A stretch of DNA of 33,954 nucleotides from an uncultured Anaerolineales bacterium (GCA_964614895.1 CAZTMY010000001.1:1-33954), one strand, 5' to 3'. Shown: positions 5,017-30,097, numbered from the stretch's first letter. The notes: generated by a model from the sequence alone, not told the origin. Made by a program: numbers and translations.

Positions 5017-5844
5017 ATGCGTATTGCGGTGACGGGCAGCGAAGGTCAACTAGGAAAAGCGATTCAAGCCCTCGTCCCAGAAGACAACCTCCTGCCAATG
5101 GACCTGCCAGAACACGACATCACCGATTTGGCACACACGGTGGAGAGCATCCGCACCTTTGCGCCAGACGTGGTCATCCACACTGCCGCCATCACCGATG
5201 TGGATGGTTGTGAGCGTGACCCCGACCTGGCCTACCGAGTCAATGTCATCGGAACGCGAAACGTCGCCGTCGCCGCTTGCCAGGCAGGTTGCCCCGTGGC
5301 CTATATCAGCACCGACTATGTCTTTGATGGCGCCAAGACCTCGCCCTACCGCGAGTATGACGCTCCCCATCCACTCAGCGTCTATGCCGAGACCAAAGAG
5401 GCCGGCGAGCGCGTGGTGCGCAATCACGCCCCTGCCCACTATATCGTGCGCGTCGCGTGGCTATACGGGGCGGGGCCGCGCAACTTTCCCCAGACGGTGT
5501 TGCGTTTGGCCCGTGAGCGCCGCGAGATGACCATGGTCACTGACGAGATTGGCTCGCCCACCTACGCACACGATGTGGCCCAAGCGCTACTGCAATTGGT
5601 CGCGATGCCCGCCTATGGGACATACCACCTCACGAACGGCGGCGTCTGCTCGCGCTACGAGTTGGCCCAAGCCATCATCGAACTCGCCGGAATCGAGGGC
5701 GTGATGATCCACCCCAGCGAGAATTACCAACGGCTGGCCCGTGTGCCCAAGCGGTGCGAGCTAAAGAATACTATGGCCGCGCAACTGGGTATCCGCATGC
5801 GTCCTTGGCAAGACGCACTTGCTGCCTATATCGAGTCATTGTGA
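5017..5844 (+). CDS. rfbD: dTDP-4-dehydrorhamnose reductase
   Basis: MRIAVTGSEGQLG (Rossmann GxxGxxG)...VVIHTAAITDVDGCE.DPD.AY.VN..G..N.A.A......ISTDYVFDG....Y.E.D...P...YA.TK is classic RmlD. SD GGTGGAGG lies upstream of the ATG. Confidence 0.9.
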   Translation: MRIAVTGSEGQLGKAIQALVPEDNLLPMDLPEHDITDLAHTVESIRTFAPDVVIHTAAITDVDGCERDPDLAYRVNVIGTRNVAVAACQAGCPVAYISTDYVFDGAKTSPYREYDAPHPLSVYAETKEAGERVVRNHAPAHYIVRVAWLYGAGPRNFPQTVLRLARERREMTMVTDEIGSPTYAHDVAQALLQLVAMPAYGTYHLTNGGVCSRYELAQAIIELAGIEGVMIHPSENYQRLARVPKRCELKNTMAAQLGIRMRPWQDALAAYIESL

Positions 5845-5845
5845 G

Positions 5846-6901
5846 ATGAACACAGTCGCGACCTCGGACGAGCCCCGTGCGACACCCGACCACCCCCGGG
5901 CATCAGTCATCATCCCCAACTGGAACGGGTGGCGTTACCTTCGCCCTTGCCTCGCGTCGTTGGCCGCGCAAACCTACCGATGCTTTGAGATCATCGTCGT
6001 AGACAATGCCTCCACGGACGGCTCGGTAGAGGCGGTGCGACGCGAGTTCCCCAACGTGCGAGTGCTGGCACTCACGAGGAACGGGGGCTACAGTGCCGGT
6101 TGTAACGCGGGCGTCCGAGAGGCGCGCGGCGAGATCGTCGTCTTTCTGAATAACGACATCGAGGCCGAGCCCACCTGGCTGGAGGCCCTCCTAGATGCCT
6201 TGGATCGGCACCCCGACGCGGGGTCTGCTGCCTCGCGAATGATGCTCTACGATCAGCCCACGCACATCCACTCTGCCGGCGACACCTATGGGGTGGATGG
6301 CTTGCCGGACTCGCGGGGTGTCTGGCAGCCGTATGGGCCGCCATACGATCTCGAGCGCTATGTCTTTGGTGGGTGTGGAGGAACGCTAGCCTACCGCAAA
6401 GACGTGCTGGATGAGATTGGCCTGTTCGATGAGACATTCTTCATGTACTGCGAAGACGTGGATCTGAACTGGCGAGCGCAACTGGCTGGCTATCGCTGCA
6501 TCTACACGCCCGATGCCGTGGTACGCCACCACCTCTCGGCGACGGGAGGCGGCAGCCTGTCCAGCTACTATGTGGGACGAAACACCCTCTGGGTAATCGC
6601 CCGCAACTACCCACCCGAGCTGCTGCGACGTCACCGCGGCCAAGTGTTGAGGGCTCAGTGGCGCATCGCCAAGGATGCCCTTCGGTCCTTCCGGGGCAAG
6701 GCTGCTCGAGCACGTCTGCGGGGCCAGATTGTGGGCCTGCTGACCGCATGGCGGTGGCATGCCTATCGTCGAAAGCTCATGGCTCGGCGCAGGGTCTCGG
6801 ATGCCTATATAGCATCGATCCTCGAGCATCCCGATAGCTCGAATGTCCAATGCCAGGGGGCGGCAACCACGGATGATCAGGGAGCACGGCACAATGGCTG
6901 A
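5846..6901 (+). CDS. Family 2 glycosyltransferase (WbbL-like, possibly a rhamnosyltransferase)
   Basis: SVIIPNWNG..YL..CL.SL..QTY..FEIIVVDNASTDGS......F..V.....RNGGYSAGCN.G......E.VVFLNNDIE is a GT2 Rossmann-like domain with DxD-type motifs. The ATG at 5846 lies 1 nt after the rfbD stop. Confidence 0.8.
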   Translation: MNTVATSDEPRATPDHPRASVIIPNWNGWRYLRPCLASLAAQTYRCFEIIVVDNASTDGSVEAVRREFPNVRVLALTRNGGYSAGCNAGVREARGEIVVFLNNDIEAEPTWLEALLDALDRHPDAGSAASRMMLYDQPTHIHSAGDTYGVDGLPDSRGVWQPYGPPYDLERYVFGGCGGTLAYRKDVLDEIGLFDETFFMYCEDVDLNWRAQLAGYRCIYTPDAVVRHHLSATGGGSLSSYYVGRNTLWVIARNYPPELLRRHRGQVLRAQWRIAKDALRSFRGKAARARLRGQIVGLLTAWRWHAYRRKLMARRRVSDAYIASILEHPDSSNVQCQGAATTDDQGARHNG

Positions 6902-7661
6902 TCCATACCTTTCCGTGGTAGTGCCCTGCTACAACGAGAAAGAAAACCTGCAGCGCGGCGTCCTGCAGGAGATGCACGCCTACCTCTCGCGTCAGCCGTG
7001 GTCCTACGAGGTGATTGTCTCCGACGACGGCAGCACCGACGCCAGCCGCGACCTCGTGCGCCAGGCGATAGCCGAGCTGCCCCAATTCCGCCTGCAAGCG
7101 AACCCACACCGCGGCAAGCCCGGAGCTGTTTGGGCGGGCATCCAAGCTGCTCGGGGCGAGCTCGTGCTATTTGCCGACATGGACCAATCCACGCCCATCG
7201 ACCAGCTCGACGCGCTGTTGCCAATGTACGCATCCGGCTATGATGTCGTCATCGGGTCGCGTGGCGTCCAGCGAGCCAACTTTAGCTGGTACCGGCGCCT
7301 AGGGTCAGCGATCTTTCGTACACTGCGACGCCTCCTGATGCTGCGTGACATTTCGGATACGCAGTGCGGCTTCAAATCCATGCGACGATCCGTGGCCTTG
7401 GAGCTCTTCCCGCGGCTGGACGCCATTCGCCACGCCGGAGAGGTGACAGGCTGGAAAGTGACCGCGTTCGACGTCGAGCTGCTCTACCTTGCCGAACGGG
7501 CCGGCTATGACATCGCCGAGGTGACCGTTGCCTGGGCGAACCGTGATACCGCTACGGGCAAGGGCAAGAGCTACCTGTGCGAATCCAAGGAGATGATCGC
7601 GCAGATCTGCCGTATCAAGTGGAACGAGATCCGCGGTCGCTACCAGCAGGACGCTCAGTAG
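6894..7661 (+). CDS. Family 2 glycosyltransferase (polyprenol-phosphate sugar transferase / DPM1-like)
   Basis: LSVVVPCYNEKENL......E.......PWSYEVIVSDDGSTD.S......GKPGAV..G...A.GELVLFADMDQSTP...L...DVVIGSR...RR......DTQCGFK is a typical DPM1/GtrB-like GT2. The ATG at 6894 overlaps the upstream stop (ATGGCTGA). Confidence 0.8.
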   Translation: MADPYLSVVVPCYNEKENLQRGVLQEMHAYLSRQPWSYEVIVSDDGSTDASRDLVRQAIAELPQFRLQANPHRGKPGAVWAGIQAARGELVLFADMDQSTPIDQLDALLPMYASGYDVVIGSRGVQRANFSWYRRLGSAIFRTLRRLLMLRDISDTQCGFKSMRRSVALELFPRLDAIRHAGEVTGWKVTAFDVELLYLAERAGYDIAEVTVAWANRDTATGKGKSYLCESKEMIAQICRIKWNEIRGRYQQDAQ

Positions 7662-7918: not shown

Positions 7919-9520
7919 ATGCGGGAGATGGGCAATCACGGCGCGATGCCTGTCCCCCCCAGAAGAGAGTCCACGGTGCACTGGGATTTCACACCATATG
8001 CTTGGCCCCTCCTCGCATCGGGCGTTGTCAGCATCGCGTTCGCGGTGCTGGCGCTCAAGCGTCGCCCCACCAAGGGAGCACTTGCCTTTGCTTCCCTCGA
8101 ATTCGCCGTCGCGATCTGGGCAGTGGCCTATGCCCTAGAGCTCTGTAGCCCCTCCCTCAACCAAAAGCTCTTTTGGTCCAGCATCGAATACATCGGCATC
8201 GTGGCGACACCTGTGATCTGGTTCATGTTTGCGCTCCAATACGGCGGCCGACCCGTACGTCCTTGGAGCCCCACCGCTTTGCTCCTGATCCTGATGTCAG
8301 TCGTCACCCTCATGATCGCTTGGACGAACCGCTACCATCTGCTCTTGCGCAGGGATGTGACCCTCCAGACGGTTGGTGATCTCACCATCATCGGCAAGAC
8401 TTACGGCCCCTGGTTCTGGGTGCACACGGTCTTTTCCTACACGCTGCTGGCCACAGGGACATTCGTCCTCATTCAGGAGCATTCCCGATCATCGCGGCTC
8501 TACCGGGCACAGACGGTTGCCTTGGTGCTGGGCGCTGTCATCCCCTGGATCAGCAACGCCCTCTACCTCACGGGAAACAACCCCGTGCCTGGCATGGACA
8601 TCACGCCCGCAACGTTTGCCATATCTGGGGTCGCCATTGCACTGGCGCTATTCCGGTACGGCCTGCTCGACCTGGTCCCCGCCGCACACGACACCATCAT
8701 CGCTTCGCTAAGCGATGGCGTCATCGTGCTGGATGACCGTGGCCGGATCGTCGACATGAATCCCGCCGCCGAGCACATTACCGGCCTCAGTACCTCCGAT
8801 GCCATCGGCCAGCATGCAAGTGTGATCTTTGCCGACCACTCCCAGGATCTGTCCCATTGCTGGAGCGCCTTGGACGCGCGCGCCGAGATCAGTCTGGGTT
8901 CGGGCGACGAGGCGGAACACTATGACATGCGCGTGTCGCCCCTATATGACGGGCGCGGATTGCTTACAGGGCGCGTCGTGCTCTTGCACGACGTCACCGA
9001 GCGCAAACTATTCGAGCAACAGCTCACCTATGTGAGCACGCACGATCCCCTCACAGATCTCTACAATCGCGGCTTTTTTGAAGACGCGATGGACCGTCTC
9101 AAAGAGTTCCCGGGCCCCGTCGGCGTGGTTACCGTGGATATCAACGAGTTAAAGGCCACCAACGACCGCTTTGGCCATCCGGCGGGGGATGCACTGCTGC
9201 GTCGCGTGGCCACCATGCTCCGAGCAGTCTTTCGTACCAACGACGTTGTTGCCCGTATCGGCGGCGACGAGTTTGGCATCCTCTTGCCCGGAGCCGACAA
9301 GACCGGCACCACCACGGCCCTCAACCGCATGCGTCGTGCCCTGGCTGCGCAGCGCGAGCTCGACAAGAGCGAGCGCATCAGCCTCTCCATGGGCAGCGCG
9401 GTAGCCCCCAAGGGGGCCAGCGTACGTCGTGCCTTCAGGGAAGCCGACGCGAGCATGTACGCAGACAAGCAACGCTACCGCGCCGCCAACGGCATCAGCC
9501 GCGACACGCGTTCTGCCTGA
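7919..9520 (+). CDS. Diguanylate cyclase with N-terminal multi-pass (7TM-type) sensor domain and PAS domain
   Basis: About 240 aa of hydrophobic helices resembling the histidine-kinase N-terminal 7TM module. A PAS-like segment follows (LSDGVIVLDDRGRIVDMNPAAEHITG). The GGDEF domain has RIGGDEF (GGDEF codons at 9260-9274) and an RxxD I-site (RTND) exactly 5 residues upstream. Confidence 0.85.
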   Translation: MREMGNHGAMPVPPRRESTVHWDFTPYAWPLLASGVVSIAFAVLALKRRPTKGALAFASLEFAVAIWAVAYALELCSPSLNQKLFWSSIEYIGIVATPVIWFMFALQYGGRPVRPWSPTALLLILMSVVTLMIAWTNRYHLLLRRDVTLQTVGDLTIIGKTYGPWFWVHTVFSYTLLATGTFVLIQEHSRSSRLYRAQTVALVLGAVIPWISNALYLTGNNPVPGMDITPATFAISGVAIALALFRYGLLDLVPAAHDTIIASLSDGVIVLDDRGRIVDMNPAAEHITGLSTSDAIGQHASVIFADHSQDLSHCWSALDARAEISLGSGDEAEHYDMRVSPLYDGRGLLTGRVVLLHDVTERKLFEQQLTYVSTHDPLTDLYNRGFFEDAMDRLKEFPGPVGVVTVDINELKATNDRFGHPAGDALLRRVATMLRAVFRTNDVVARIGGDEFGILLPGADKTGTTTALNRMRRALAAQRELDKSERISLSMGSAVAPKGASVRRAFREADASMYADKQRYRAANGISRDTRSA

Positions 9521-9570: not shown

Positions 9571-9599
9571 TTGGCGTTCCGTGCTGCTTGCCCTATACT
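9571..9599 (+). promoter_or_regulatory. Putative promoter for the URO-D-like / sulfatase bicistron
   Basis: TTGGCG (9571-9576), 17 nt, TATACT (9594-9599). The ATG is at 9634, preceded by GGGAGGA. Confidence 0.4.
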
Positions 9600-9633: not shown

Positions 9634-10623
9634 ATGAACCATGTCGAGCGTTTTCGGGCGCTGATGGCATTCCAGCCCGTAGATCGCCTACCTAGGTTAG
9701 AGTGGGCTACTTGGTGGGACCAGACCATCGAGCGCTGGCATCAGGAAGGCCTGCCCCCGCACTTGACCGATACGTACGACATCGATCTCTACTTTGGCCT
9801 TGACCCGCACAAGCAGTTCTGGTTCAGCCCGCGCCTGCGCAGCATGCCACCGCCAGCGCACCACGGGGCAGGCGTTATCGCGAACAGCGACGACTATGAA
9901 CGGCTACGCGTACATCTGTTCCCGCCGGTTGAGCCGCTCGTGGCCAACATGGCCCCCTTTGGCGAGTTGCAGGACCGGGGCGACTGTGTAGTTTGGTTCA
10001 CCATCGACGGATTCTTCTGGTACCCAAGAACCCTGCTCGGGATCGAACGTCACCTATACGCCTTCTATGATCAACCTGAGCTCATGCATCGCATGAACGC
10101 CGAGTACACGGAATGGGCCATCGACCTTGTCCACGCCATGTGTCGCGTCTGCAAACCCACGTACATGACCTTTGCTGAAGACATGTCGTACAATCACGGC
10201 CCGATGCTGAGCAAGAGCTTGTTCGACGAGTTCATAGCACCCTACTACCGGCGCATCGTGCCCGTGCTGCGCGAGTATGATATTCTGCCCATCATCGATT
10301 CCGATGGCGATATCACCAAGCTGGTCCCCTGGTTCGCCCAAGTGGATGTACACGGATTCCTGCCACTAGAACGCCAAGCGGGCGTCGATCTCGCCAGCCT
10401 GCGCGCAGAGCATCCGCGGCTCCGAGTCATCGGCCACTTTGACAAGATGACCATGACCCGCGGCACCGACGTCATGCGCGCCGAGTTCGAGCGCCTGCAG
10501 CCGATCATGGAGCAGGGAGGGTACATCCCCAGCGTGGACCATCAGACACCGCCGGGGGTGTCGCTGGCTCAATACCGGCAGTACTTGGCGCTACTCTGGG
10601 AATTCACGGCCAAGGCGCCATAG
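9634..10623 (+). CDS. Uroporphyrinogen decarboxylase (URO-D) family protein, paralogue 1, function unknown
   Basis: MNHVERFRALMAFQPVDRLPRLEW...; central FAEDMSYNHGPMLS..LFDEF; C-terminal IPSVDHQTPPGVS. This is the architecture of URO-D/MtaA-superfamily TIM barrels. I chose the ATG at 9634 with a good SD over the TTG at 9571. Confidence 0.7.
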   Translation: MNHVERFRALMAFQPVDRLPRLEWATWWDQTIERWHQEGLPPHLTDTYDIDLYFGLDPHKQFWFSPRLRSMPPPAHHGAGVIANSDDYERLRVHLFPPVEPLVANMAPFGELQDRGDCVVWFTIDGFFWYPRTLLGIERHLYAFYDQPELMHRMNAEYTEWAIDLVHAMCRVCKPTYMTFAEDMSYNHGPMLSKSLFDEFIAPYYRRIVPVLREYDILPIIDSDGDITKLVPWFAQVDVHGFLPLERQAGVDLASLRAEHPRLRVIGHFDKMTMTRGTDVMRAEFERLQPIMEQGGYIPSVDHQTPPGVSLAQYRQYLALLWEFTAKAP

Positions 10624-10639
10624 CAGAGAGGAGGCTCCC

Positions 10640-12082
10640 ATGCCAGACCGACCCAACATAGTCCTGATCATGGCTGATCAGTGGCGAGGAGACTGTCTCT
10701 CAGTGTACGGGCATCCGACCGTGTTCACCCCCTATCTCGACCAACTGGCGGGCCGAGGCGTACGGTTCACGCGAGCCTATTCGGCTACCCCAACCTGTAT
10801 TCCGGCACGCGCCGGCCTCTACACCGGGCAATCCCCGCGCACACATGGCCGGGTGGGCTACCGCGACGGCGTGCCTTGGAACTATCCCGTAACGTTGGCT
10901 GGCGAGTTCACCCGTCACGGCTACCAGACCGAGGCCGTGGGCAAGATGCACGTGTACCCAGAACGCTCGCTGATGGGGTTCCAGCATGTCACGCTGCACG
11001 ACGGCTTTTTGCACTTTGCCCGTAGCCGCCATGCCAATCTCGCCGAGGTCGATGACTATGTCCCCTGGCTCCGCGAGCGTCTGGGACGCGATGCCGACTA
11101 TTTCGAGCACGGGGTGAATTGCAACTCGATGGTTGTTCGCCCATGGGACAAGGAAGAGTACCTCCACCCCACCAACTGGGTCACCAGCCAGGCCATCCGG
11201 TTCCTGCAGCGGCGCGACCGCCGCCGTCCGTTCTTCCTGTTCGTTTCCTACCATCGCCCTCACCCACCCCTAGATCCTCCAGCATGGGCCTATGAGATGT
11301 ACGCCCATCAGAACATGCCTGATCCGCCCATCGGCGACTGGCACCGCATCTTTGCCGAATCCTCGGCGCCCCACCGGGCCGACCCACTCTATGCCCATCT
11401 GGACTCGCGCGCGCTCCAGATGGCACGCGCCGGTTACTATGGGCACATGACACACATCGATCATCAGATCAACCGCCTGCTCGAATCCCTTCCGGAGAAC
11501 GGCGTCGGGGACAACACGTACATCTGCTTCACGGCAGATCATGGTGAGATGCTGGGAGACCATCACCTCTTCCGCAAGGCGTACCCCTACGAGGGGTCAG
11601 CGCGAGTGCCGCTGCTGCTGGCAGGACCAAGTGGTTCTGGAATCGTGCCAGATAGCGTGAGCCACAACGTGGTTGAGCTGCGGGACATCATGCCCACGCT
11701 GCTGACCGCCGCGGGGCTCCCGGTGCCAAGCACGGTCGAAGGCAAGAGTCTGCTACCCCTCGCGCGCGGCGAGGATGTTCCTTGGCGGCCCTACCTCCAC
11801 GGGGAGCATACCGCCATCGGCCAATCCATTCAGTGGCTGACCGACGGACACACCAAGTACGTCTGGTTCAGCGGCACAGGGCAAGAGCAGCTCTTTGATC
11901 TGGTATCGGATCCCCAGGAGACGATCAACCTAGCCACCAGAGCCGATATGCAAACACAGCTTGAGCGCTGGCGGCGAATCCTTATGTCCGAGCTTTCCGG
12001 ACGTGAGGAGGGGTTCACAGACGGAGAGAGGCTGATCACTGGGCGGCCGGTGCGCCCTTGCCTGGCCCACGTGCGCGCTTGA
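10640..12082 (+). CDS. Sulfatase (S1 family, Cys-type), no signal peptide
   Basis: PNIVLIMADQWRGD at residues 5-18. The formylglycine signature TPTC(53)IPARAGLYTG has its Cys codon at 10796-10798. Downstream are GKMH, a DHG-type motif (TADHGEMLGDH) and a C-terminal LFDL..DP.E..NL motif. It lies 16 nt after paralogue 1, with GAGAGGAGG as SD. Confidence 0.9.
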   Translation: MPDRPNIVLIMADQWRGDCLSVYGHPTVFTPYLDQLAGRGVRFTRAYSATPTCIPARAGLYTGQSPRTHGRVGYRDGVPWNYPVTLAGEFTRHGYQTEAVGKMHVYPERSLMGFQHVTLHDGFLHFARSRHANLAEVDDYVPWLRERLGRDADYFEHGVNCNSMVVRPWDKEEYLHPTNWVTSQAIRFLQRRDRRRPFFLFVSYHRPHPPLDPPAWAYEMYAHQNMPDPPIGDWHRIFAESSAPHRADPLYAHLDSRALQMARAGYYGHMTHIDHQINRLLESLPENGVGDNTYICFTADHGEMLGDHHLFRKAYPYEGSARVPLLLAGPSGSGIVPDSVSHNVVELRDIMPTLLTAAGLPVPSTVEGKSLLPLARGEDVPWRPYLHGEHTAIGQSIQWLTDGHTKYVWFSGTGQEQLFDLVSDPQETINLATRADMQTQLERWRRILMSELSGREEGFTDGERLITGRPVRPCLAHVRA

Positions 12083-12174
12083 GTGGAAGCGCCCTTTAGC
12101 GCCCGATTAGCGTGCTCACCACTGGCGGTGCCACCAAGCAAGCGACTAGATCATCTAACTTGTGCGCGGCCGTG

Positions 12175-13158
12175 TCAGCGACCCGTCGCATAGACGTGAT
12201 AGGCCCGACTGTAACTGATGATGGCGTCCAGGCAGGCCGCCGCCTGTAGGAACACGCCTGCTACTTGCGAGGTGTACCCTATGATGCGAGCCATATCCCC
12301 CGCCGTCAGCCCGATCTGGTCCCGCCGAGCCAACGCCAGAAAGACAACCAGGAACTGACTGCCAATCAGCGCTGCGTATCGCAGATAGAGATACCATTGG
12401 TGGCGTGAAACCAGCTCCACAAATACCTCTTTTCGACGCCGCAACACATCGCGCAGACGATCGCGATGCGCCTCTTCCCGCGGCGCCGTGAGCGCGCGGA
12501 TACATGCCCCCTCCACCTGGTTGATCAGCCCATACTGGTCGTCACGCAGCACGCGCAAGCGATTGTTAAAGATCACCGTCATAGCGGCAGGGATCACCAA
12601 GCTTGCAAGATATGCCAGCCCCAACTGCGTGTTCATGGCGAGCAGGCTCGAAGAGACGACGATAATCTTGATGATCACCGGAAGAAACGAGCCCAAGACA
12701 TGGTAGGTGGCGTTGGTGATACCGCTAACCGCATTGGCGATACGGGCGTTGGCCTGTCCCGCGGCCTCGGCATCGATCTCGCGGCCCTCGTCGCAAAGCG
12801 CAACGGTCATCTGCACGCGCTTGGAGAAATCAGTCTCGTAGAACATCTTGTGGCGCAATACGATGTTGCCGCGCAAGACCAGAGGTGCCAGCAGGGACGC
12901 GCCGAGAAATAGCAAAACGACGCTACCCAGATCCGCCGTAGAGAACCGATCGATGAACTCGCCCAATAGACTGACGGGCCACAGCGCCACAATCTCCTGG
13001 ATCGCTGTTACCACCAGGATGGCGAGAGCGTACCACTTGTAATCCATGATCAGACCCCAGACATCGCGCCAGAAAGCGGCGTTGGAATCCGTCGCCATGG
13101 GCCCAGAAGGGCGCCTAGCAAACAACCTTGAGATTGGGGATCGTCTGGGAGTGCTCAT
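12175..13158 (-). CDS. ABC exporter-type transmembrane domain protein lacking a nucleotide-binding domain
   Basis: The 327-aa ORF has the six-helix layout and long intracellular-loop helices of type I ABC exporter TMDs. No Walker A/B or LSGGQ is present anywhere in the ORF. Only 92 nt remain before the convergent sulfatase gene. Confidence 0.5.
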   Translation of the reverse strand: MSTPRRSPISRLFARRPSGPMATDSNAAFWRDVWGLIMDYKWYALAILVVTAIQEIVALWPVSLLGEFIDRFSTADLGSVVLLFLGASLLAPLVLRGNIVLRHKMFYETDFSKRVQMTVALCDEGREIDAEAAGQANARIANAVSGITNATYHVLGSFLPVIIKIIVVSSSLLAMNTQLGLAYLASLVIPAAMTVIFNNRLRVLRDDQYGLINQVEGACIRALTAPREEAHRDRLRDVLRRRKEVFVELVSRHQWYLYLRYAALIGSQFLVVFLALARRDQIGLTAGDMARIIGYTSQVAGVFLQAAACLDAIISYSRAYHVYATGR

Positions 13159-13336
13159 TCTCAGGTACCACCATATTCGACTAGGAACTCGGCATGAACC
13201 GCGATGATACGTCTGATTCCCCAGGATGCAAATGCGCGAGCGTGATCCACACGCACGCTTGCCAACACGCTGGATGGTAGCTATGTTATGGCGTCACTTG
13301 GGTATGAGAAGAGTACAATCGCAAGCGAGGCACCTC

Positions 13337-14419
13337 ATGAGTATGACGGGCAAAGAACGGATGGAACGCATCCTCCGCCACGAGCCGGTGGACCGCATCG
13401 GCCTGATGGAACATTTCTGGTCAGACACGGCAAGCGCTTGGACGAGCCAGGGCCACCTTCAGCCAGGAGAGAACCTAGCGGATCATTTCGGTTTTGACCT
13501 CGAGCTAAGCTGGGCGCTCAACATGGTGGCAGATCTGGACTGGGAGCCCGAGGTGCTCGATGAGACGGACGAGACCATCCTCACGCGCAATGGCAACTAT
13601 GCCGTGATGCGTACGCACAAGCTACACGACGCCACACCAGAACACGTCGATTTCGCCGTCAAGGGACGCGAGGCTTGGGAGGAACTGATCAAGCCCAAAC
13701 TCACGCCCGATCCGCGCCGCATCAACTTCCAGGCGTACCGCGAGACCAAAGAGCGAGCCGCCAAGGCTGGCCGCTTCTTTATGCTGTCAGGCGTGAACGT
13801 ATTCGAGATCATGAAGGACGTCACCGGTCATGAGCACATGCTCGTAGGCATGGCGCTGGACCCCGACTGGGTGCGCGACATGGCCGACACGTACGCGCAT
13901 CTGATCATCGAGCTACAGGAGATGCTATTCGCCCAAGAGGGCTGGCCCGACGGCATCTGGTACTATGAGGACATGGGATTCAAGGCCAAGCCCTTCATGT
14001 CGCCGCGCATGTACAAGACCATCGTCCAACCGGCTCACGAGCTGACCCTAGGCTTTGCCAAGGAGCACGGCTTGCCGACGATCGTCCACTCGTGCGGCTA
14101 TATCGAGCCTCTCATCCCGGGGCTCATTGAGGCCGGCATGGACTGCCTGCAAGTCATTGAGGTGAAAGCGGGCATGGATCTGCTCAAGCTTTATGCCGAG
14201 TTTGGCGACCGCATCTCGTTCATGGGCGGCATCGACGTGCGCGTGCTCTATACCAACGATAGAGCACAAATCGACGCCGAGCTGGAGGCCAAGATCCCCA
14301 CCGTCATGCAGAACAACGGCTATGTCCTCCACAGCGATCACTCGATCCCCAACACGGTACACTATGACACGTATCGCTACTTTATCGACAAAGGGCTCGA
14401 GCTAGGGACGTATCGCTAG
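13337..14419 (+). CDS. URO-D family protein, paralogue 2 (carries an H-x-C-G motif), function unknown
   Basis: MSMTGKERMERILRHEPVDRIGLMEHFW...; YYEDMGFKAKPFMSPRMY; TIVHSCGY (His-Ser-Cys-Gly codons at 14087-14098); VLHSDHSIPNTV. Same fold signature as paralogue 1. I chose the ATG at 13337 over the start at 13226. Confidence 0.7.
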   Translation: MSMTGKERMERILRHEPVDRIGLMEHFWSDTASAWTSQGHLQPGENLADHFGFDLELSWALNMVADLDWEPEVLDETDETILTRNGNYAVMRTHKLHDATPEHVDFAVKGREAWEELIKPKLTPDPRRINFQAYRETKERAAKAGRFFMLSGVNVFEIMKDVTGHEHMLVGMALDPDWVRDMADTYAHLIIELQEMLFAQEGWPDGIWYYEDMGFKAKPFMSPRMYKTIVQPAHELTLGFAKEHGLPTIVHSCGYIEPLIPGLIEAGMDCLQVIEVKAGMDLLKLYAEFGDRISFMGGIDVRVLYTNDRAQIDAELEAKIPTVMQNNGYVLHSDHSIPNTVHYDTYRYFIDKGLELGTYR

Positions 14420-14434
14420 GCACACGCACATAGG

Positions 14435-14467
14435 AAAGCGGGCGGACGCTCCACGTCCGCCCGCTTT
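14435..14467. terminator. Bidirectional intrinsic terminator hairpin
   Basis: AAAGCGGGCGGACG (14435-14448) / loop CTCCA / CGTCCGCCCGCTTT (14454-14467) is a perfect 14-bp stem. The A-run on one side and T-run on the other give a U-tract on both strands. It lies between convergent genes. Confidence 0.7.
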
Positions 14468-14478
14468 TCGCTCCCAAG

Positions 14479-15984
14479 CTAGTGCCCCGGCGGCAGCGCC
14501 GCATCCGCCGGAGTCGGTAGCGGCCCTTCAGGTGGCTGCGGCACGGGTAGGGCATCCTCCGTCATGATGGCCCAATCTCCCAGCCGCTGCCGCAAGTTCG
14601 CCTCCACCGCGGCGTACGCTGGCTCCGCTGCCACGTTCCTCAGCTCCCAGGGATCGTTCTCCAGATCGTAAAGCTCATCCAGATCGCCCATGGGGTCATG
14701 GACGTACTTCCAGCGACGGGTGCGGATCATCTTCCGCCTTCCCTCGGCCTCGCGCCAACGCAGCGAGCGCAGGAGCGACGCCCGGCCACGCGGGGCATCC
14801 AGCGCCCGCAGATCATCCATGGTGAAAGCCGGCCCACCGCAGCCATACTCCGAGAACGCCGCATCGCGCGGCGCGGCCTCTGTCACCGTGGGCAAAGGAT
14901 GGCTCTGAACCCACCAAGGTATCGTGTCGCCCTGCAGCGTCATCAACGTAGGCACCACGTCCACCAAACTGACCATGCTGTCATCAACCACCCCCTCGGG
15001 GACGTTTCCGGGCCATGACACCACCATGGGAATGCGGGTCAGCGCGTCGTAAAAGACCCCGCCTTTGCATTGCATGCGGTGCTCCCCAGCAAAGTCGCCG
15101 TGGTCCGCGCAGAACACAACTATAGTGCGCTCACGGAGGCCGAGACGCTCCAGCGCATCTAGAATCTGTCCCAGAGCATCATCCAGAAAGCGCACCATGC
15201 CATAGTAGGCCGCCAGCAGGCCATAGATGTGCTCCGTGGGCTCGTCCTCCAAGCCGAGCATCTGATAGAGCACGCGGTTACGCTCAGGTGCGCCGTCGAG
15301 CTCGCCTTCGCGCCAGGGCGGAAGCTCGATTACGTCAGGCGAAAACATCTCGGCATAGCGACGAGGCGCTTCGTAGGGCTCGTGCGGATCCGGGAACGAG
15401 ACCCACAGCGCAAAGCGGTCCTCTTGGTGCTGCTCCAAGAACCGCTCTGTCTGTAACGCCACCAGGCCTGTGCCATAGTCGGCCAAATGGTAGTCCGTGT
15501 GCGCGTACGAGAACATGGGGCTGACGTCTGGCATGTGGCGTCGCACGCTGTGAGCGCGGATCACGCCGTCAATGGGCCGCGCCCAGGCCAAGCCCACTGG
15601 CGGCTCGGAAGCGGGCCCGCCGTGGCTGATCTCGCACCACGTCCCAAAGAGCGCGCGGTTGTCCGCATCGTAGAAGCAGTGGTTCTTGCCGATGAGGCCA
15701 CAGTGGTAGCCCTGCTGATGCCAGTGAGCAAAGGCGTGCGGCCGCCCGACCGGCATCGGGGTCTCGTTGCGTCGCGCCCCATTCTGGTGGGGATAGCTAG
15801 CAGTCCAGAGGGCCACGCGCGCTGGCATGCATAGCGGATGCGGGGTGAAGGCGTGCCGAAAGGTCACTCCCTCGTCAGCGAGCCGCTGGAGTGACGGCGT
15901 CTGGCAGAAGGTATTGCCGTACAGATGGCTGGCAGTAGCTTTGAGCTGGTCGCACATGATGACGAGGATGTTGGGCTGGGGCAT
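14479..15984 (-). CDS. Sulfatase (S1 family, Cys-type), no signal peptide
   Basis: PNILVIMCDQ at residues 4-13. The signature is PLC(52)MPARVALWT, with the Cys codon at 15829-15831 (minus strand). Also CADHGDFAGEH and a C-terminal LYDLENDPWELRN. AGGAGG lies just upstream of the ATG. Confidence 0.9.
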   Translation of the reverse strand: MPQPNILVIMCDQLKATASHLYGNTFCQTPSLQRLADEGVTFRHAFTPHPLCMPARVALWTASYPHQNGARRNETPMPVGRPHAFAHWHQQGYHCGLIGKNHCFYDADNRALFGTWCEISHGGPASEPPVGLAWARPIDGVIRAHSVRRHMPDVSPMFSYAHTDYHLADYGTGLVALQTERFLEQHQEDRFALWVSFPDPHEPYEAPRRYAEMFSPDVIELPPWREGELDGAPERNRVLYQMLGLEDEPTEHIYGLLAAYYGMVRFLDDALGQILDALERLGLRERTIVVFCADHGDFAGEHRMQCKGGVFYDALTRIPMVVSWPGNVPEGVVDDSMVSLVDVVPTLMTLQGDTIPWWVQSHPLPTVTEAAPRDAAFSEYGCGGPAFTMDDLRALDAPRGRASLLRSLRWREAEGRRKMIRTRRWKYVHDPMGDLDELYDLENDPWELRNVAAEPAYAAVEANLRQRLGDWAIMTEDALPVPQPPEGPLPTPADAALPPGH

Positions 15985-16327: not shown

Positions 16328-16521
16328 CTAGGGAATCCGCCCCTGTAGGCCACTCCCACGACGCCCAGCATCAAACCAGCGAACGATGCCATATACGTCA
16401 AGCCGTTGAGCGCAAACGTGGATGGCAAGATGTGCAACACCATCAGCAACGCCAACATGACGCTCAAGCACATGAGAACGATACCGACAATCAGATACAG
16501 GGAGCCCCTGGACGCTCTCAC
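16315..16521 (-). CDS. Hypothetical small membrane protein (two predicted TM helices)
   Basis: 68-aa ORF with LYLIVGIVLMCLSVMLALLMVLHIL and a second hydrophobic stretch. Its GTG start overlaps the upstream ATPase stop (GTGA, 16518-16521). It could instead be a chance ORF in the decayed region. Confidence 0.35.
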   Translation of the reverse strand: MRASRGSLYLIVGIVLMCLSVMLALLMVLHILPSTFALNGLTYMASFAGLMLGVVGVAYRGGFPRVRR

Positions 16522-17540
16522 TGGAAAAGCCAGCAGGCCGCCGTATGGTTCGGCTCAATCTCAAACTCGGGCGGCTGCTCGACGTCGCAGAGCCCCGCGA
16601 TCGCGCGGCTGCACCGGGGGTGGAATCGGCACCCGGCAGGCGGATGCACCAAGCTCGGTGGCTCGCCAGGCGGCACATCCTTGAATTTTAACGCGTTCTC
16701 TGGATCGGGGTCCGAGGTAGCCGCAAGAAGAGCCAGTGTGTAGGGATGGCTGGGATTCGCCAGGAGGTCGTCCACCTTGGCCTTTTCAACAATCTGCCCC
16801 GCGTACATTACAAAGATCCGCTCGGAAAAGTAGCGTACGGTGGACAGATCATGCGTGATATACATCACTGCGAGGCCGTGCGCTTCTTGCAGCGCGCGCA
16901 TCAGTCTGAGGATCTCCACGCGGATGGATGCGTCCAGCATCGACACAGGCTCGTCAGCCACCAGCATCTCGGGCTGCAGGATCATGGCGCGCGCGATTAC
17001 CACACGTTGCTGCTGACCCCCGCTCAGCATGTGCGGGAACTTGGTTATAAAGTCCTCAATCGGGGTGAGCTTGACCTCTTCAAGCGCCTGAACGATCCGC
17101 TCCTGCCGCTCCTCCTTGTCGCGCACACCATTGATGACCAGCGGCTCCTCTATGATTCGCGAGATCGTCATGAACGGCGGCAGAGCACCAAAAGGATCCT
17201 GCTGCACGTATCCCACGTGCGATCGGTACCACTGCATCTCTCGCGAGCCAAGCTCGCTTACATTGGTACCCTCAAAGACGATCTCGCCCTCCGTAGGGAG
17301 ATGCAGCCCAAGAATCGCCTTCATGAGCGTTGACTTGCCACAGCCACTCTCGCCCACCACCGCAATGGCCTCGCCATAGCCAAGATCAAAGCTCACACCG
17401 TCGACAGCGCGAACCGAACCCGCATGCCCAAAGCCCCAACGCCGAAGCTCAAACCAGATCCGTAGGTCCTTGACGGACAGCATCACTTCCTGGGTTCTGT
17501 CCGTTTCCACTCGCGACGAGGAGCTAGCTACCACATCCAT
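16518..17540 (-). CDS. Opp/Dpp-family ABC transporter ATP-binding protein (OppF/DppF-like)
   Basis: Walker A GESGCGKST, signature LSGGQQQRV, Walker B LVADEPVSMLD, and a Cys-rich oligo_HPY-type C-terminus (GCRFHPRC...C...ACW). I preferred the ATG at 17540 with an AGGAGA SD over the TTG at 17567. Confidence 0.9.
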   Translation of the reverse strand: MDVVASSSSRVETDRTQEVMLSVKDLRIWFELRRWGFGHAGSVRAVDGVSFDLGYGEAIAVVGESGCGKSTLMKAILGLHLPTEGEIVFEGTNVSELGSREMQWYRSHVGYVQQDPFGALPPFMTISRIIEEPLVINGVRDKEERQERIVQALEEVKLTPIEDFITKFPHMLSGGQQQRVVIARAMILQPEMLVADEPVSMLDASIRVEILRLMRALQEAHGLAVMYITHDLSTVRYFSERIFVMYAGQIVEKAKVDDLLANPSHPYTLALLAATSDPDPENALKFKDVPPGEPPSLVHPPAGCRFHPRCSRAIAGLCDVEQPPEFEIEPNHTAACWLFQ

Positions 17541-17622
17541 TAGGTTCTCCTGATCCCACACCCCCAACGCGCCTCAGACACGCTCGCGGCCCTGTCAGCA
17601 ATACCCGCTCCCAGGCCGTCGT

Positions 17623-18624
17623 CTACGCCCGCGCGGCCTGTTCTGCCGCTTCGTGCGTCTCCGCTCCGTCGTACAGCCAGCATCGCACCTCACGGCCATC
17701 GACCTCAAATACCGGCGGGTCCTCACTGCAGCGGTCATGACACATCGGACAACGAGGCGCGAACCGGCAGCCTGGCCCCAGCCCGAGCAAGCTCGGAGGC
17801 TGCCCAATGATGAACTCCGGCTCGACATCCCCGCGTAGGCGAGGCACACTGGCCATCAGCTTCTGCGAGTAGGGATGGAGCGGCTCGGTGAAGAAACGGA
17901 AGGCATCGCTCACCTCGACGATCTGCCCAGCGTACATCACCGCTACCTTGTCGGCCAGCTCGCTGGACGTAGCGATGTCGTGGGTGATCAGTATAAGGCT
18001 GGTCTCCATCTCGTCTTTGATACGCTTGAGCATATTCATGATGTTCGCCTGCGTAAGCACGTCCAGCGCGGACGTGGGCTCATCTAAAATGATGAGCGCC
18101 GGCGCCGTCACCAACGACATAGCGATGGCCACGCGCTGACGCATGCCGCCACTCAACTCAAAGGCATATCGCCGCATAAAGTCCAGTGGTACGCCCACAT
18201 GTTCAAACATCCGCTGCGCCTGCGCCAGGGCTTCTTCCTTGCCCACGCCATAGTGGACCATCATGGGCTCTGCAACCTGATCGCCCACCCGCAGTACGGG
18301 ATTCAGCGCGTTCATCGCTGCCTGCGGCACAAGGGACATCTTGACCCAACGCACCTGCCGTCGGAATGCTTCCTCATCCAGTTGCATCACGTCCGTGCCG
18401 TTGAGAAAGACCTCGCCTTCGTAGGTCTCCACATTCCTGGGAAGCAACCGCAACACGGCCTTGGCCAGGGAGCTCTTGCCACAACCTGACTCACCAATCA
18501 CCACGACGGCCTCGTTGTGCCCCAAGTTGAGCCGCACGCCGTCCACAGCCTGCACGATGCCCTGGGTAGTGCGGAAATACAGCTTCAGATCTCGCAGACG
18601 GAGCAGATTACCCTGTGCCATCAC
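17623..18624 (-). CDS. Opp/Dpp-family ABC transporter ATP-binding protein (OppD/DppD-like)
   Basis: Walker A GESGCGKSS, LSGGMRQRV, Walker B LILDEPTSALD, and C-terminal GCRFAPRCPMCHDRC...RCW. The start lies 1 nt after the upstream permease stop. Confidence 0.9.
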   Translation of the reverse strand: MMAQGNLLRLRDLKLYFRTTQGIVQAVDGVRLNLGHNEAVVVIGESGCGKSSLAKAVLRLLPRNVETYEGEVFLNGTDVMQLDEEAFRRQVRWVKMSLVPQAAMNALNPVLRVGDQVAEPMMVHYGVGKEEALAQAQRMFEHVGVPLDFMRRYAFELSGGMRQRVAIAMSLVTAPALIILDEPTSALDVLTQANIMNMLKRIKDEMETSLILITHDIATSSELADKVAVMYAGQIVEVSDAFRFFTEPLHPYSQKLMASVPRLRGDVEPEFIIGQPPSLLGLGPGCRFAPRCPMCHDRCSEDPPVFEVDGREVRCWLYDGAETHEAAEQAARA

Positions 18625-18625
18625 G

Positions 18626-19969
18626 CTACAGACCCCTCAACCTAGGGTTAAAGACACGATCTAACGAAAAGCCCACCATCGCGAACGACAGGCCCACCAC
18701 CATCAAGAGCGCGGCCGGCTGTAGGACCCAGTAGTACTGCCCGTTGTGCAACGCTCCCTGGGCCCGCGCATCCTCGATGACCTTACCCCAGGTAGGCAGC
18801 ACCGGATCGCCCAAGCCCAGCAGCGTCAGCGACGCCTCCAGGAACACATACACCGGCACACCACTCACTAGCGAGGGGATCATCACCGGGATGATCCGCG
18901 GAACCAGGTACCGCACGATGATCCGCCCGTTGCTGGCGCCGTAGGCTCTAGCAGCCTCGATGTAGGGCGCCTCTCGCACCTGGAGGAAAATGGCCCGAAA
19001 AGTCTTGATAGAGCCGCCAAAGATGCTCAGAGCAATCACGCCACCCAGCATGATCCAGATGCTGCGCGAATAGAACGTTCCTACCATGATGAGAATGGGT
19101 AACACCGGCAATACCATGTTGATCTCGGTGATGCGCTGGACGATCGCATCCACCCAGCCACCAAACCAGACCCCCACAGCGGCCACCAACATTGTCGTGA
19201 GCGTCGTGCCGAGAGCCGCGAGCAGGCCAAAGGCTAACGCGATGGGTGTTCCCCACTCCAGGGCCACCATCAGGTCGCGGCGGCGATGATCGGTTCCCGC
19301 TAGGCCATGCACCTGTCCGTAAGCAACCCACTTGGCCTCTACATCGGCATCGGGCTCAAAGGTCGTCACCCGGATCTCTAGCTCGTACGTGCCCTTCAAG
19401 GGCGTCGGCGTCTCGGATTCTGGATCAGCAAAGAGCGCTATCTGCGGAGGCACGTCTCCCAGCCGCCGCGCGAGGCGGTCATCCAGAGCCGGGCGGTAGG
19501 TCTCTGTAGGACGGAGGGACAACCGCCCCAGCCTGATCTCCCGCCCGTCCGGAGTATGCCACATCAAAGACGCATACGGCGACTTTTCGTCATAGGTGGT
19601 CTGAAAGAAGACGGCCAGCTCCTGTGGGAAATCATCGTACTGGTAGTCAAACGTATACACCAAGGTGATATCCTGACCGTCCTCCATGAGCGGCTCCGTC
19701 GTCTTGACGGCCTCGCCCTTGAGACTATCGAGGACGATGGTCGGCGGCAGCTTGTAACGTGAGAATAGGTTGTACCAGATGGGCCGCGCCGTCTTGGGGT
19801 ACTCGCCCCAGACATCCTCGCCGCCGCGCCACAGACGGATCGCCTCGCTGTAAGGCAACGTCACCACAGTATAGATGCCGAACACTACAAAGAGTCCGAT
19901 GATCGTCAAGCCAATGATAGCCGAGGGGTAGCGACTGATCTGACGAATGTTATTCCAGAGATTCCTCAT
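18626..19969 (-). CDS. Opp/Dpp-family ABC permease (OppC/DppC-like) with a long extracytoplasmic N-terminal loop
   Basis: TM1 is followed by about 200 aa of hydrophilic sequence, then a BPD-transporter core with the EAA-like motif (REAPYIEAARAYGASNGRII.RYL.P). Confidence 0.85.
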   Translation of the reverse strand: MRNLWNNIRQISRYPSAIIGLTIIGLFVVFGIYTVVTLPYSEAIRLWRGGEDVWGEYPKTARPIWYNLFSRYKLPPTIVLDSLKGEAVKTTEPLMEDGQDITLVYTFDYQYDDFPQELAVFFQTTYDEKSPYASLMWHTPDGREIRLGRLSLRPTETYRPALDDRLARRLGDVPPQIALFADPESETPTPLKGTYELEIRVTTFEPDADVEAKWVAYGQVHGLAGTDHRRRDLMVALEWGTPIALAFGLLAALGTTLTTMLVAAVGVWFGGWVDAIVQRITEINMVLPVLPILIMVGTFYSRSIWIMLGGVIALSIFGGSIKTFRAIFLQVREAPYIEAARAYGASNGRIIVRYLVPRIIPVMIPSLVSGVPVYVFLEASLTLLGLGDPVLPTWGKVIEDARAQGALHNGQYYWVLQPAALLMVVGLSFAMVGFSLDRVFNPRLRGL

Positions 19970-19983
19970 TGTACCCTCAGCCT

Positions 19984-21111
19984 TTAGCTACCAACTCGGA
20001 CACGCGGGTCAACCAGCGCGTAGATAAAGTCCAGCAGGAACACGGTGATCGCCAACAAGTAGGCATAAATCACGGTTGACCCCACAATCACGGGCGTATC
20101 GTACAAGTGGATAGCCGAATAAAGCAACCTACCTAGGCCTGGCCAGTTAAAGACCGTCTCCAAGATGATGGCCCCGGTCCATAGGCCGATCAGCAGCAGC
20201 GCAAAGTTGGTGATGATATTGGGGAGCGTTGGCCGCAAGATGTACCGCCGCTCGATCTCGCGCGACGGCAGCCCCTTGGCCTTGGCCATCTCCACATAGT
20301 CCTCACTGGAGAAGATCAAGAAAAAGGTGCGCCAGGCATACACTCCACTAAAGACCCCGCTCAACAGCCACGCCGTCACCGGTAACACCAGGTGATACAG
20401 GACGCTGACACCGTACGCGAGTTTGTTATCAGGAGGCGGGGCCACCACCATCCCACCGAACGGGAACACGTTCCACTTGGCAGCAAAGATAAGCAGCAAG
20501 AAGATGCCATAGAACCATGCCGGAGCCGAGGACAGGGGTGACAGCGCGATAACCATACGGTCGAGGAACGTGCCGTACTTGCGTGAAAGATAGAGAGCAA
20601 AGAAAACGCTCAACACAAAGAGTAGCAGGTTTGACGTTGCCATGAGCAGCAGCGTTGCTGGAAGCCGCTCGAGGATGATCAGGCGCACGAGCCGAGATCC
20701 GCTATCGCTGGAGATCTGCTCGGCGCGCCCCAGGTCTAGGCGCAGCGCATCTCCCAAGAAGCCAAAGCTGCGCACGATAAAGGGCCGGTTCAATCCCAGA
20801 CGCTGTTCCTCTACCGCCACGATCTGGTTGATCATGCTCGTGCGCTGATCCGCGTCGAGATGTTTGAACTCCGGGTCCGCGCTCATCCTGAGAGCCACTT
20901 CCTCGCGAATCTGACCGCGACGGATATCGTCTACATATCCACCCATGTTGGCGATGAGGATCGTCAGGTACACGCCCACCACCACGGTGAAAAACAGCGC
21001 CACTGTCCTGGTGGCCGTGTACTTGAGGACCCTCGAAACCGTGCTGCTCCCGCGGCGTTCCCTCCGCGACGGTACGGCAGCTTCGCCCACAGCACCTGTC
21101 ACATCGGTCAT
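19984..21111 (-). CDS. Opp/Dpp-family ABC permease (OppB/DppB-like)
   Basis: Typical OppB layout: an N-terminal TM helix, a GLNRPF-type loop, and an EAA motif (EDYVEMAKAKGLPSREI.RRYILR). I chose the ATG at 21111 over the longer start at 21186. Confidence 0.85.
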   Translation of the reverse strand: MTDVTGAVGEAAVPSRRERRGSSTVSRVLKYTATRTVALFFTVVVGVYLTILIANMGGYVDDIRRGQIREEVALRMSADPEFKHLDADQRTSMINQIVAVEEQRLGLNRPFIVRSFGFLGDALRLDLGRAEQISSDSGSRLVRLIILERLPATLLLMATSNLLLFVLSVFFALYLSRKYGTFLDRMVIALSPLSSAPAWFYGIFLLLIFAAKWNVFPFGGMVVAPPPDNKLAYGVSVLYHLVLPVTAWLLSGVFSGVYAWRTFFLIFSSEDYVEMAKAKGLPSREIERRYILRPTLPNIITNFALLLIGLWTGAIILETVFNWPGLGRLLYSAIHLYDTPVIVGSTVIYAYLLAITVFLLDFIYALVDPRVRVGS

Positions 21112-21285
21112 GTTTGTCTCACTCTCACAAAAAGCGCTCTCTACCACCCTATCAGCCCGGTCTACTGGGCCGAGGCCTGACCTCAATCCGTGAGCCTACA
21201 GCAATCAGCACAACGTATCCGTTCAGCACTCCGGAGGGACACGACGTGTCGTGTCCCTCCGGCGCAACTCTCGGTCTCGTACCAG

Positions 21286-28417: not shown

Positions 28418-28758
28418 TTGCCAGGACTCCTTCCACTCTGCCATGTCTAAAACCCTATTCAGACCGATCGTACTGCCCCTAGTCGGGAATTCTGGCGCTC
28501 GCCACGTCGCTCCTCTTCGCCCACGTCCTCTTGCCTTGTCGTGCATGCTAGCGCGGCCTCAGGAACCGACAGAGGTCCCATGTCCGTGCTCCACGAGCGA
28601 TGGCCCCTGACCCAGGCCGCCCCCACAGAACCGCCGAGGGTCGCCGAACCGTTGGACACGCGTCAGCCGGAGGCCACGGCGACGGAAAGCCCGGAGACAC
28701 CATCGGCAACAAGACGCCCTTGCGACGAATCTATGCTCCCGGGATGCCACCCGAAAGT

Positions 28759-30069: not shown

Positions 30070-30097
30070 GGCCCCATAATCCTTGCAGGAGGTAAGC

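Follow-up and report, generated by a model that had tools for sequence, protein, structure and literature searches.

Divergent uroporphyrinogen decarboxylase-like proteins of an Anaerolineales glycan locus and their possible link to corrinoid-dependent methyl transfer

Introduction

Known members of the superfamily of uroporphyrinogen decarboxylase (UroD, or HemE) include corrinoid methyltransferases with O-, S- or halide-demethylating activity (PMC10418091). Here we analyse three divergent members of this superfamily, P1, P2 and P3, which are encoded together with three sulfatases (S1, S2 and S3) in a stretch of 33,954 bp from an uncultured Anaerolineales bacterium (GCA_964614895.1, CAZTMY010000001.1:1-33954). 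This stretch, referred to below as the window, has ~62% G+C and comes from an Anaerolineae metagenome-assembled genome (MAG). The original prediction had read the repeated proximity of the two gene types as an uncharacterised enzyme partnership between UroD-like proteins and sulfatases. A partnership of this kind is not supported at the level of the families. Instead, the relatives of P1 and P2 are found in a context of glycan and sugar catabolism, and some of them adjoin components of corrinoid-dependent methyl transfer.

Among described enzymes, the methylcobamide:thiol methyltransferases MtaA, MtbA and CmuA (MT2; structures 4ay7 and 4ay8) have the UroD TIM-barrel fold (TM ~0.65-0.7) and an N-terminal 'PVDR' motif in common with the proteins studied here. 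P2 resembles them further in a His-x-Cys-Gly motif with a downstream Glu, and one clade of its homologues is followed by a corrinoid protein. The two groups differ in that the proteins of the window score 17-37 bits against MtaA-type cut-offs of 235-400, with ~14-15% identity; P2 appears to have Asp-His in place of the last Cys among the zinc ligands and carries an insertion (residues 55-106); P1 has Asp-x-Asp in place of His-x-Cys; and the setting is bacterial glycan degradation rather than methanogenesis. The corrinoid-dependent O-demethylases of anaerobes (MtvB, OdmB and MtoB type) belong to the same superfamily (PMC10418091). They share the reaction type proposed here, transfer of an ether methyl group to Co(I), and they too occur in multi-paralogue gene arrays; their known substrates, however, are methoxylated aromatics, not sugars, and their genes normally lie with those of a corrinoid protein and an MT2. 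HemE shares fold and Pfam family with P1 and P2 but has no acidic or Cys metal-site residues.

Methyl ethers block the catabolism of sugars such as 2-O-methyl-fucose, 2-O-methyl-xylose, 3-O-methyl-rhamnose, 4-O-methyl-glucuronate and 6-O-methyl-galactose. The only route of sugar O-demethylation that we found in the searched literature is the O2-dependent cytochrome P450 that demethylates 6-O-methyl-D-galactose in the porphyran pathway (PMC6292453). The role of this enzyme, the removal of methyl ethers that block the catabolism of algal-glycan sugars, is the one proposed here for P1 and P2. The P450 belongs to an unrelated family, however, and acts oxidatively, needing O2 and releasing formaldehyde, whereas the reaction considered below would be a methyl transfer without oxygen.

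Three large subfamilies of the UroD superfamily

The claim that three divergent UroD/MtaA-superfamily members lie in this locus held for all three, by two routes. P1 and P2 match Pfam PF01208 (URO-D) with 45.8 and 49.1 bits, respectively (threshold 23.9), in both cases over the C-terminal half only. The P3 fragment has no Pfam match of its own; its membership is confirmed indirectly, because its full-length homologues of ~355 aa, P0241 (88% identical) and P0242 (78%), carry PF01208, as do ~100 more distant ones. P1 and P2 are 22% identical over their full length and align with an hhalign probability of 98%. No signal peptide was detected in P1, P2 or P3.

Structure models (AF2) of P1 and P2 reached a pLDDT of 91 and 90.8, respectively, and their top PDB matches are HemE and MtaA of M. 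mazei (TM ~0.7, E ~1e-10), at merely 11-20% identity; MetE is more distant. Searches of PDB chains by sequence were uninformative: as single sequences P1 and P2 retrieved nothing useful, and a P1 profile gave only noise. The P2 model contains an extra beta-sheet insertion at residues 55-106.

A candidate active site could be delineated in P2 by alignment with M. mazei MtaA (4ay7). H251-S-C253-G and E275 align with 'LHICG' and the 'SVEE' glutamate of that enzyme, positions which we take to be its His, Cys and Glu zinc ligands. Residues E211, D212, H251, C253, E275, D334 and H335 are 100% conserved in 81 P2-family sequences, and the motif is consistent with a predicted zinc site in P2. H335, which follows D334 (D302-H303 in P1), aligns with the C-terminal His of the 'GHG' motif of HemE. 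The combination of His-x-Cys and a Glu ~20 residues downstream is present in P2, but not in P1 (D222-S-D224, E246) nor in P3-type proteins (H-M-D).

In P1, the motifs AEDMSYNHGP, D222-S-D224-G-D, LPLERQAGVD, GHFDK and DHQTPP are invariant, as is a carboxylate-rich site formed by E182, D183, D222, D224, E246, D270, D302 and H303. A profile-profile alignment places D222, D224, E246, D302 and H303, which do not vary among 18 diverse orthologues, in the same columns as site residues of P2. The P3 homologues read VHMDG where P1 has DSDG and P2 has HSCG. The candidate ligand sets are thus Asp-x-Asp...Glu...Asp-His in P1, His-x-Cys...Glu...Asp-His in P2 and His-x-Asp in the P3 type; since they occupy shared columns with differing residues, P1, P2 and P3 represent one architecture with three ligand sets. 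We infer that all three are cytoplasmic TIM-barrel metalloenzymes, with metal binding predicted from these conserved residues.

Each protein stands for a different, large, tightly conserved and uncharacterised subfamily of the UroD/MtaA/MetE superfamily. We detected 6,465 homologues of P1 and 3,844 of P2, not one of them with a functional name; the best 120 for P2 are all at least 70% identical to it. Orthologues of P1, ~57-67% identical and present in at least 587 species genomes, occur in Chloroflexota, Planctomycetota, Verrucomicrobiota, Armatimonadota, Hydrogenedentota, Latescibacterota, Lentisphaerota and Aminicenantes. Proteins of Anaerolineae MAGs on record include exact copies of P2, entered as 'hypothetical protein' or as 'uroporphyrinogen decarboxylase family protein', and of S1, entered as 'arylsulfatase'. 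The searched literature contained nothing on these families, which agrees with their having been called uncharacterised, nor did it describe any UroD-family protein from a glycan or sulfatase locus. We regard them as new subfamilies within a known superfamily, and their metabolic setting as one not yet described.

The generic PF01208 match and the likeness of fold to HemE structures could also be explained if P1, P2 and P3 were genuine HemE proteins that merely sit in a glycan locus. We reject this reading, whose probability is negligible. Against the HemE equivalog model TIGR01464, P1 scores 15.4 bits, far below the cut-off of 302.95, and P2 and P3 give no match, in line with the expectation that the paralogues differ from HemE. 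In addition, there are three paralogues in the window, no gene of haem biosynthesis was found among the window genes by Pfam and NCBIfam scans, none is among the common neighbours of P1 and P2 homologues, and the family context is one of glycan degradation. The MtaA-type models are not reached either: P1 obtains 17.6-17.9 bits with the MtaA/CmuA models TIGR01463, NF004889 and NF040654, and P2, whose best NCBIfam models are of this type, 32-37 bits, against cut-offs of 235-400.

A context of glycan and sugar catabolism

To describe the neighbourhoods of the two families, we used 80 species-level genome loci of P1 orthologues and 80 metagenome loci of P2 homologues (62-93% identity), with flanks of up to 10 kb. 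Genes were called with a codon-position GC filter, which reproduces the gene map of the window, and miscalled regions (such as L052, 15-17.6 kb, and the corrinoid genes of L137, L157 and L139) were recovered by tblastn and listing of open reading frames (ORFs).

The commonest immediate neighbour of P1 orthologues is a GH106 alpha-L-rhamnosidase (10/119), and a cluster of large GH106-type proteins is represented within 6 kb in 16 of the 80 P1 loci. Further neighbours include GH78, GH127, GH2 and GH109 proteins, AraC regulators and Opp-type transporters. Around P2 homologues, other URO-D paralogues are commonest (8/107 immediate neighbours, 11/80 loci), accompanied by AraC regulators, GH140 apiosidase, GH4, GH10, 2-hydroxyacid dehydrogenases, MFS sugar transporters and sugar-acid enzymes. 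The families are thus set among genes for the catabolism of glycans and sugars, and glycans that contain deoxyhexoses are somewhat favoured.

On the P0301 contig (JGI, 502 kb), the 20 kb around a P3 homologue contain at least nine PF01208 genes. This array is interspersed with genes for two unknown proteins of ~410 aa, a protein with DinB_2 and FGE-sulfatase domains and an aminotransferase. Genes for S-adenosylmethionine-dependent methyltransferases (CMAS or class I) were seen beside a P3 relative (L164:5264-6556) and beside a corrinoid-linked P2 homologue (L127:9149-9907), and Methyltransf_11/25 domains occur in three of the 107 neighbours of P2 homologues.

Corrinoid genes beside relatives of P1 and P2

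Corrinoid proteins were sought in the same loci by regular expression and tblastn. A bona fide corrinoid protein (PF02310 plus PF02607) is encoded directly downstream of the P2 homologue in L127, L137, L129, L157 and L139. These five form one clade in a neighbour-joining tree, all of whose members with enough downstream flank have the corrinoid protein, and their candidate active-site residues are identical to those of P2 at ~65% overall identity. L129 encodes in a row a P1-like URO-D (with DTDG), the P2 homologue and the corrinoid protein. Among the P1 orthologues, that of a Luteolibacter MAG (L083, 58% identical) lies together with a corrinoid protein, a homocysteine S-methyltransferase (PF02574) and another URO-D, which is of the H-x-C type, and that of L069 is divergent from a gene for the corrinoid activase RACo.

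Because these neighbours are the classical MT1, corrinoid protein and MT2 components, and because the superfamily contains such enzymes, we favour corrinoid methyl transfer as the function of P1 and P2; the glycan context makes O-methylated sugars the likeliest methyl donors. It is quite possible, as a tentative best reading, that P1 and P2 are corrinoid-dependent methyltransferases whose substrates are probably O-methyl sugars and whose corrinoid protein is encoded in another part of the genome. Their corrinoid dependence, their substrate and their assignment to MT1 or MT2 are all putative. The original prediction had listed demethylation of O-methyl sugars among possible roles, and this part of it gains support from the His-x-Cys/Glu site of P2 and from the corrinoid protein, RACo and homocysteine methyltransferase beside relatives; decarboxylation of uronate or other carboxylated sugars, also listed, gained none.

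Under corrinoid-dependent demethylation, the Opp-type ABC importer of the window would take up sulfated oligosaccharides, probably containing deoxyhexoses, which the three cytoplasmic Cys-type sulfatases and the GH78-like glycosidase would break down inside the cell. P2 would be an MtaA-like zinc methyltransferase and P1 a second methyltransferase of the same system, and the two may strip the methyl ethers from released O-methylated sugars, for example methyl-rhamnose or methyl-fucose. The methyl group would then pass through a corrinoid protein encoded outside the window.

Several observations weigh against this proposal. As the original prediction had stated for haem-biosynthesis genes and corrinoid proteins alike, scans of the whole window returned neither; no corrinoid-binding motif or homologue and no RACo was found in the 34 kb, and an Rfam scan gave no cobalamin riboswitch or other RNA family. 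A corrinoid protein is present in only five of the 80 P2-family loci and a corrinoid-related gene in only two of the 80 P1-family loci (the corrinoid protein of L083 and the RACo of L069), and there is no corrinoid protein within 10 kb of the URO-D array on the P0301 contig. As a rule, the substrate methyltransferase of a characterised O-demethylase system adjoins its corrinoid protein. With regard to the fourth zinc ligand (Cys319 in MtaA versus His335 in P2), the sole alignment seen is that of H335 with the C-terminal His of HemE. The Asp-x-Asp site of P1 has, to our knowledge, no likeness to any characterised zinc-thiolate methyltransferase, and would be better matched to a hard metal and a different chemistry. 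Many P1 orthologues come from aerobic Planctomycetota and Verrucomicrobiota. Finally, the order of a URO-D gene followed by a sulfatase gene recurs independently in one locus (L052, described below), so that some functional coupling of the two in Anaerolineales is conceivable.

In a strong rival reading, P1 and P2 are corrinoid-independent, metal-dependent TIM-barrel enzymes that have kept the UroD fold alone and catalyse a different reaction on sugars or sugar acids taken up by the cell, such as decarboxylation, epimerisation/isomerisation or hydrolysis. More than 90% of the loci are without corrinoid genes, the invariant carboxylate-rich site of P1 resembles those of hard-metal sugar enzymes, and the weaker fold matches include metal-dependent sugar epimerases and isomerases (TM ~0.45). 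Enzymes of sugar-acid catabolism, namely GH4, 2-hydroxyacid dehydrogenases, aldo-keto reductases, MR/MLE dehydratases and DHDPS-like aldolases, are found as neighbours. However, the corrinoid-linked clade has every active-site residue of P2, and the position of P1 orthologues beside RACo, a corrinoid protein and a homocysteine methyltransferase is far more specific than would be expected of random genes. We also know of no superfamily member with sugar chemistry of this kind. For all its strength as a rival, we consider corrinoid-independent sugar modification doubtful.

If P1 and P2 were corrinoid sugar demethylases, this would account for the ability of anaerobic and facultative degraders of glycans to deal with methylated ones, would give a function to several thousand proteins now misnamed 'uroporphyrinogen decarboxylase family', and would tie polysaccharide turnover to B12 and one-carbon metabolism. 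In the widest form of the proposal, the D-x-D (P1) and H-x-C (P2) subfamilies, with an often unlinked corrinoid protein, would constitute a widespread, undescribed and oxygen-independent system of sugar O-demethylation in glycan-degrading Chloroflexota, Planctomycetota, Verrucomicrobiota and allied phyla, supplying one-carbon metabolism or methionine with methyl groups taken from methylated deoxyhexoses and other methyl-sugars in complex and partly sulfated glycans. So general a system is conceivable, but on the present evidence rather unlikely. The role of these abundant UroD-like enzymes in glycan degradation is in any case a broader question than their pairing with sulfatases.

The pairing with sulfatases is local

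All three sulfatases of the window conform to type I sulfatases, with a PF00884 domain (E 1e-42 to 1e-54) and the C/S-x-P-x-R motif, which reads CIPAR from residue 53 in S1, CMPAR from residue 52 in S2 and CTPSR from residue 99 in S3. S1 also matches the NCBIfam arylsulfatase model PRK13759 (679 bits, cut-off 481). The sulfatase domains of S1 and S2 begin so early (residues 4-5) that a signal peptide would not fit in front of them, and both enzymes are therefore taken to be cytoplasmic. The S3 ORF has ~50 non-hydrophobic residues ahead of its domain; translation probably begins further in, at Met 35 or Met 44, which would again give a protein without a signal peptide.

The idea to be assessed was that of a dedicated two-enzyme partnership, with each URO-D paralogue serving the neighbouring sulfatase on the same sulfated substrate. 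It draws on two adjacent pairs in the window, P1-S1 with a 16-nt gap and P2-S2 in convergent orientation, and on their retention in related loci: L005 conserves the order GGDEF-P1-S1, and L084 retains the P2-S2 pair. An independent Anaerolineales MAG (L052, P1 59% identical) encodes on one strand a P1 orthologue, a sulfatase, an unknown protein, a GH29 fucosidase, a URO-D and another sulfatase, with a third sulfatase nearby, and in L125 a P2 homologue is followed after 25 nt by a sulfatase. In L067, the ORF at 11025-14759 (+ strand, 1,245 aa), directly after a P1 orthologue, combines GH127, DUF7402 and sulfatase domains, and may be either a genuine fusion or an artefact of ORF calling.

The frequency of sulfatases was then compared between adjacent and non-adjacent genes of the same loci, so that the loci served as their own control. 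A sulfatase lies within 10 kb in 11 of the 80 P1 loci and three of the 80 P2 loci. For the P1 family, sulfatases make up 3/140 adjacent genes (2.1%) and 10/502 non-adjacent ones (2.0%; odds ratio 1.08, p=1.0). For the P2 family, the figures are 2/123 versus 1/392 (p=0.14, not significant), and one of the two adjacent cases is the 93% identical relative of the window itself. Pfam scans of immediate neighbours agree: for P1, sulfatase accounts for 3/57 downstream genes and is outside the 25 commonest families of the 62 upstream; for P2 homologues, it accounts for 2/107.

Individual loci point the same way. In L086, whose P2 is 85% identical, the 327-aa protein and P2 are followed directly by the ABC transporter and S2 is absent. 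Neither P3 nor its 88% identical relative has a sulfatase neighbour, S3 has no URO-D neighbour, and the paired sulfatases belong to different subfamilies (25-31% mutual identity). A general URO-D/sulfatase partnership is not supported, because adjacency is at chance level, S2 is absent in L086 and the P3 relative lacks a sulfatase neighbour. On the neighbourhood statistics the partnership foreseen by the original prediction is largely refuted at the family level, and we regard a dedicated partnership as improbable.

The pairing is not pure coincidence either. The independent recurrence in L052 keeps a lineage-specific cytoplasmic pathway plausible, and in these Chloroflexota both enzyme classes might end up in shared operons by acting in the cytoplasm on the same imported oligosaccharides. 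Adjacency to a sulfatase is a local operon arrangement rather than a family-wide partnership, and the striking pairs of the window should not be generalised.

A protein of 814 aa in another assembly of the locus (P0384, corresponding to window positions 9634-12082) at first appeared to join P1 and S1 and was considered as Rosetta-stone evidence. It was rejected, because at the junction the end of P1 is read through out of frame; the apparent fusion results from a frameshift or an assembly artefact.

The window encodes three sulfatases with CxPxR motifs and no formylglycine-generating enzyme (FGE) or anSME/radical-SAM maturase within its 34 kb. This arrangement could suggest a role of the URO-D-like proteins as a new kind of maturation factor or helper for Cys-type sulfatases, for instance in formylglycine generation. 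Most family members, however, have no sulfatase nearby, a separate FGE-sulfatase gene stands beside the URO-D array on the P0301 contig, and maturases are normally encoded elsewhere in the genome. A maturase role was accordingly rejected as very improbable.

Gene boundaries, regulatory elements and other features of the locus

P1 had been described as ending 16 nt upstream of S1, and the coordinates agree: the P1 stop codon ends at 10623 and the S1 ATG begins at 10640, with the ribosome-binding site (RBS) GAGAGGAGG in the gap. The P1 ATG is itself preceded by the RBS GGGAGG. As to the proposed bicistron behind one promoter, the only support for a single promoter is a weak sigma-70-like match (Table 1); matches of such quality number five in the region against 2.3 expected by chance, an approximately 2-fold excess over shuffled sequences.

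P2 and S2 do lie tail to tail, with stops at 14419 and 14479 (minus strand) and a spacer of 59 nt. The spacer can form a hairpin of -33 kcal/mol (z=-7.1; 0/200 shuffles equally stable), with AAA adjoining it at one end and UUUU at the other. A scan for consensus terminators did not call it. The hairpin of the proposed shared bidirectional terminator is therefore present, and a terminator role for it is plausible.

Table 1. Features of the window with their coordinates, strand and supporting evidence
Feature	Coordinates	Strand	Evidence or remark
RmlC, RmlD (dTDP-rhamnose biosynthesis) and two GT2 glycosyltransferases	2145-2780, 5017-7661		upstream part of the window
7TM-PAS-GGDEF diguanylate cyclase	7919-9520	+	directly upstream of P1
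Sigma-70-like match TTGGCG-17-TATACT	9571-9599	+	upstream of P1, 9/12
P1, UroD superfamily, 'D-x-D' subfamily, 329 aa, cytoplasmic (predicted)	9634-10623	+	Pfam URO-D
S1, Cys-type (formylglycine) sulfatase	10640-12082	+	Pfam Sulfatase, E=1.5e-50
Unknown membrane-like protein, 327 aa, divergent from P2	12175-13158	-	no family
P2, UroD superfamily, MtaA-like 'H-x-C' subfamily, 360 aa, cytoplasmic (predicted)	13337-14419	+	Pfam URO-D
Perfect 16-bp hairpin between convergent P2 and S2	14433-14469		folding
S2, Cys-type sulfatase, tail-to-tail with P2	14479-15984	-	Pfam Sulfatase, E=1.3e-42
Opp-type ABC importer, five genes (two ATPases, two permeases, SBP_bac_5 protein)	16518-23967	-	
Unknown protein, 702 aa, between transporter and S3	24697-26805	+	no family
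S3, third Cys-type sulfatase	26936-28546	-	Pfam Sulfatase, E=2.7e-54
GTPase			between S3 and the GH78-like gene in map order
GH78-like six-hairpin glycosidase (alpha-L-rhamnosidase fold)	30083-32512	+	Pfam Bac_rhamnosid6H, E=3.6e-17
OsmC			between the GH78-like gene and P3 in map order
P3, UroD superfamily, 'H-x-D' subfamily, N-terminal 217 aa, runs off the window end	33304-33954	+	

The closest P1 loci are Anaerolineales MAGs. The arrangement with a GGDEF gene upstream of P1 is kept in L004, L005 and L006 at 74-82% identity, and the encoded protein may be a sensor or regulator of the locus. The 327-aa protein matched no Pfam or NCBIfam family, with only a weak ABC_membrane hit (E=0.005). It is kept as the divergent upstream neighbour of P2 in both L084 and L086 (83-87% identity), and is thus a steadier partner of P2 than S2 is.

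The SBP_bac_5 binding protein of the importer (21286-23967, minus strand) is unusually long at 893 aa, and the family model covers residues 106-337 only. For the 702-aa protein, no Pfam or NCBIfam family was found and the sole match was a weak one to the GH36 N-domain (E=0.077); it may be an undescribed glycosidase. The GH78-like gene is syntenic with L164 at 84% identity. The dTDP-rhamnose biosynthesis genes share the window with this rhamnosidase-fold protein, and elsewhere P1 orthologues are found near GH106 and GH78 rhamnosidases.

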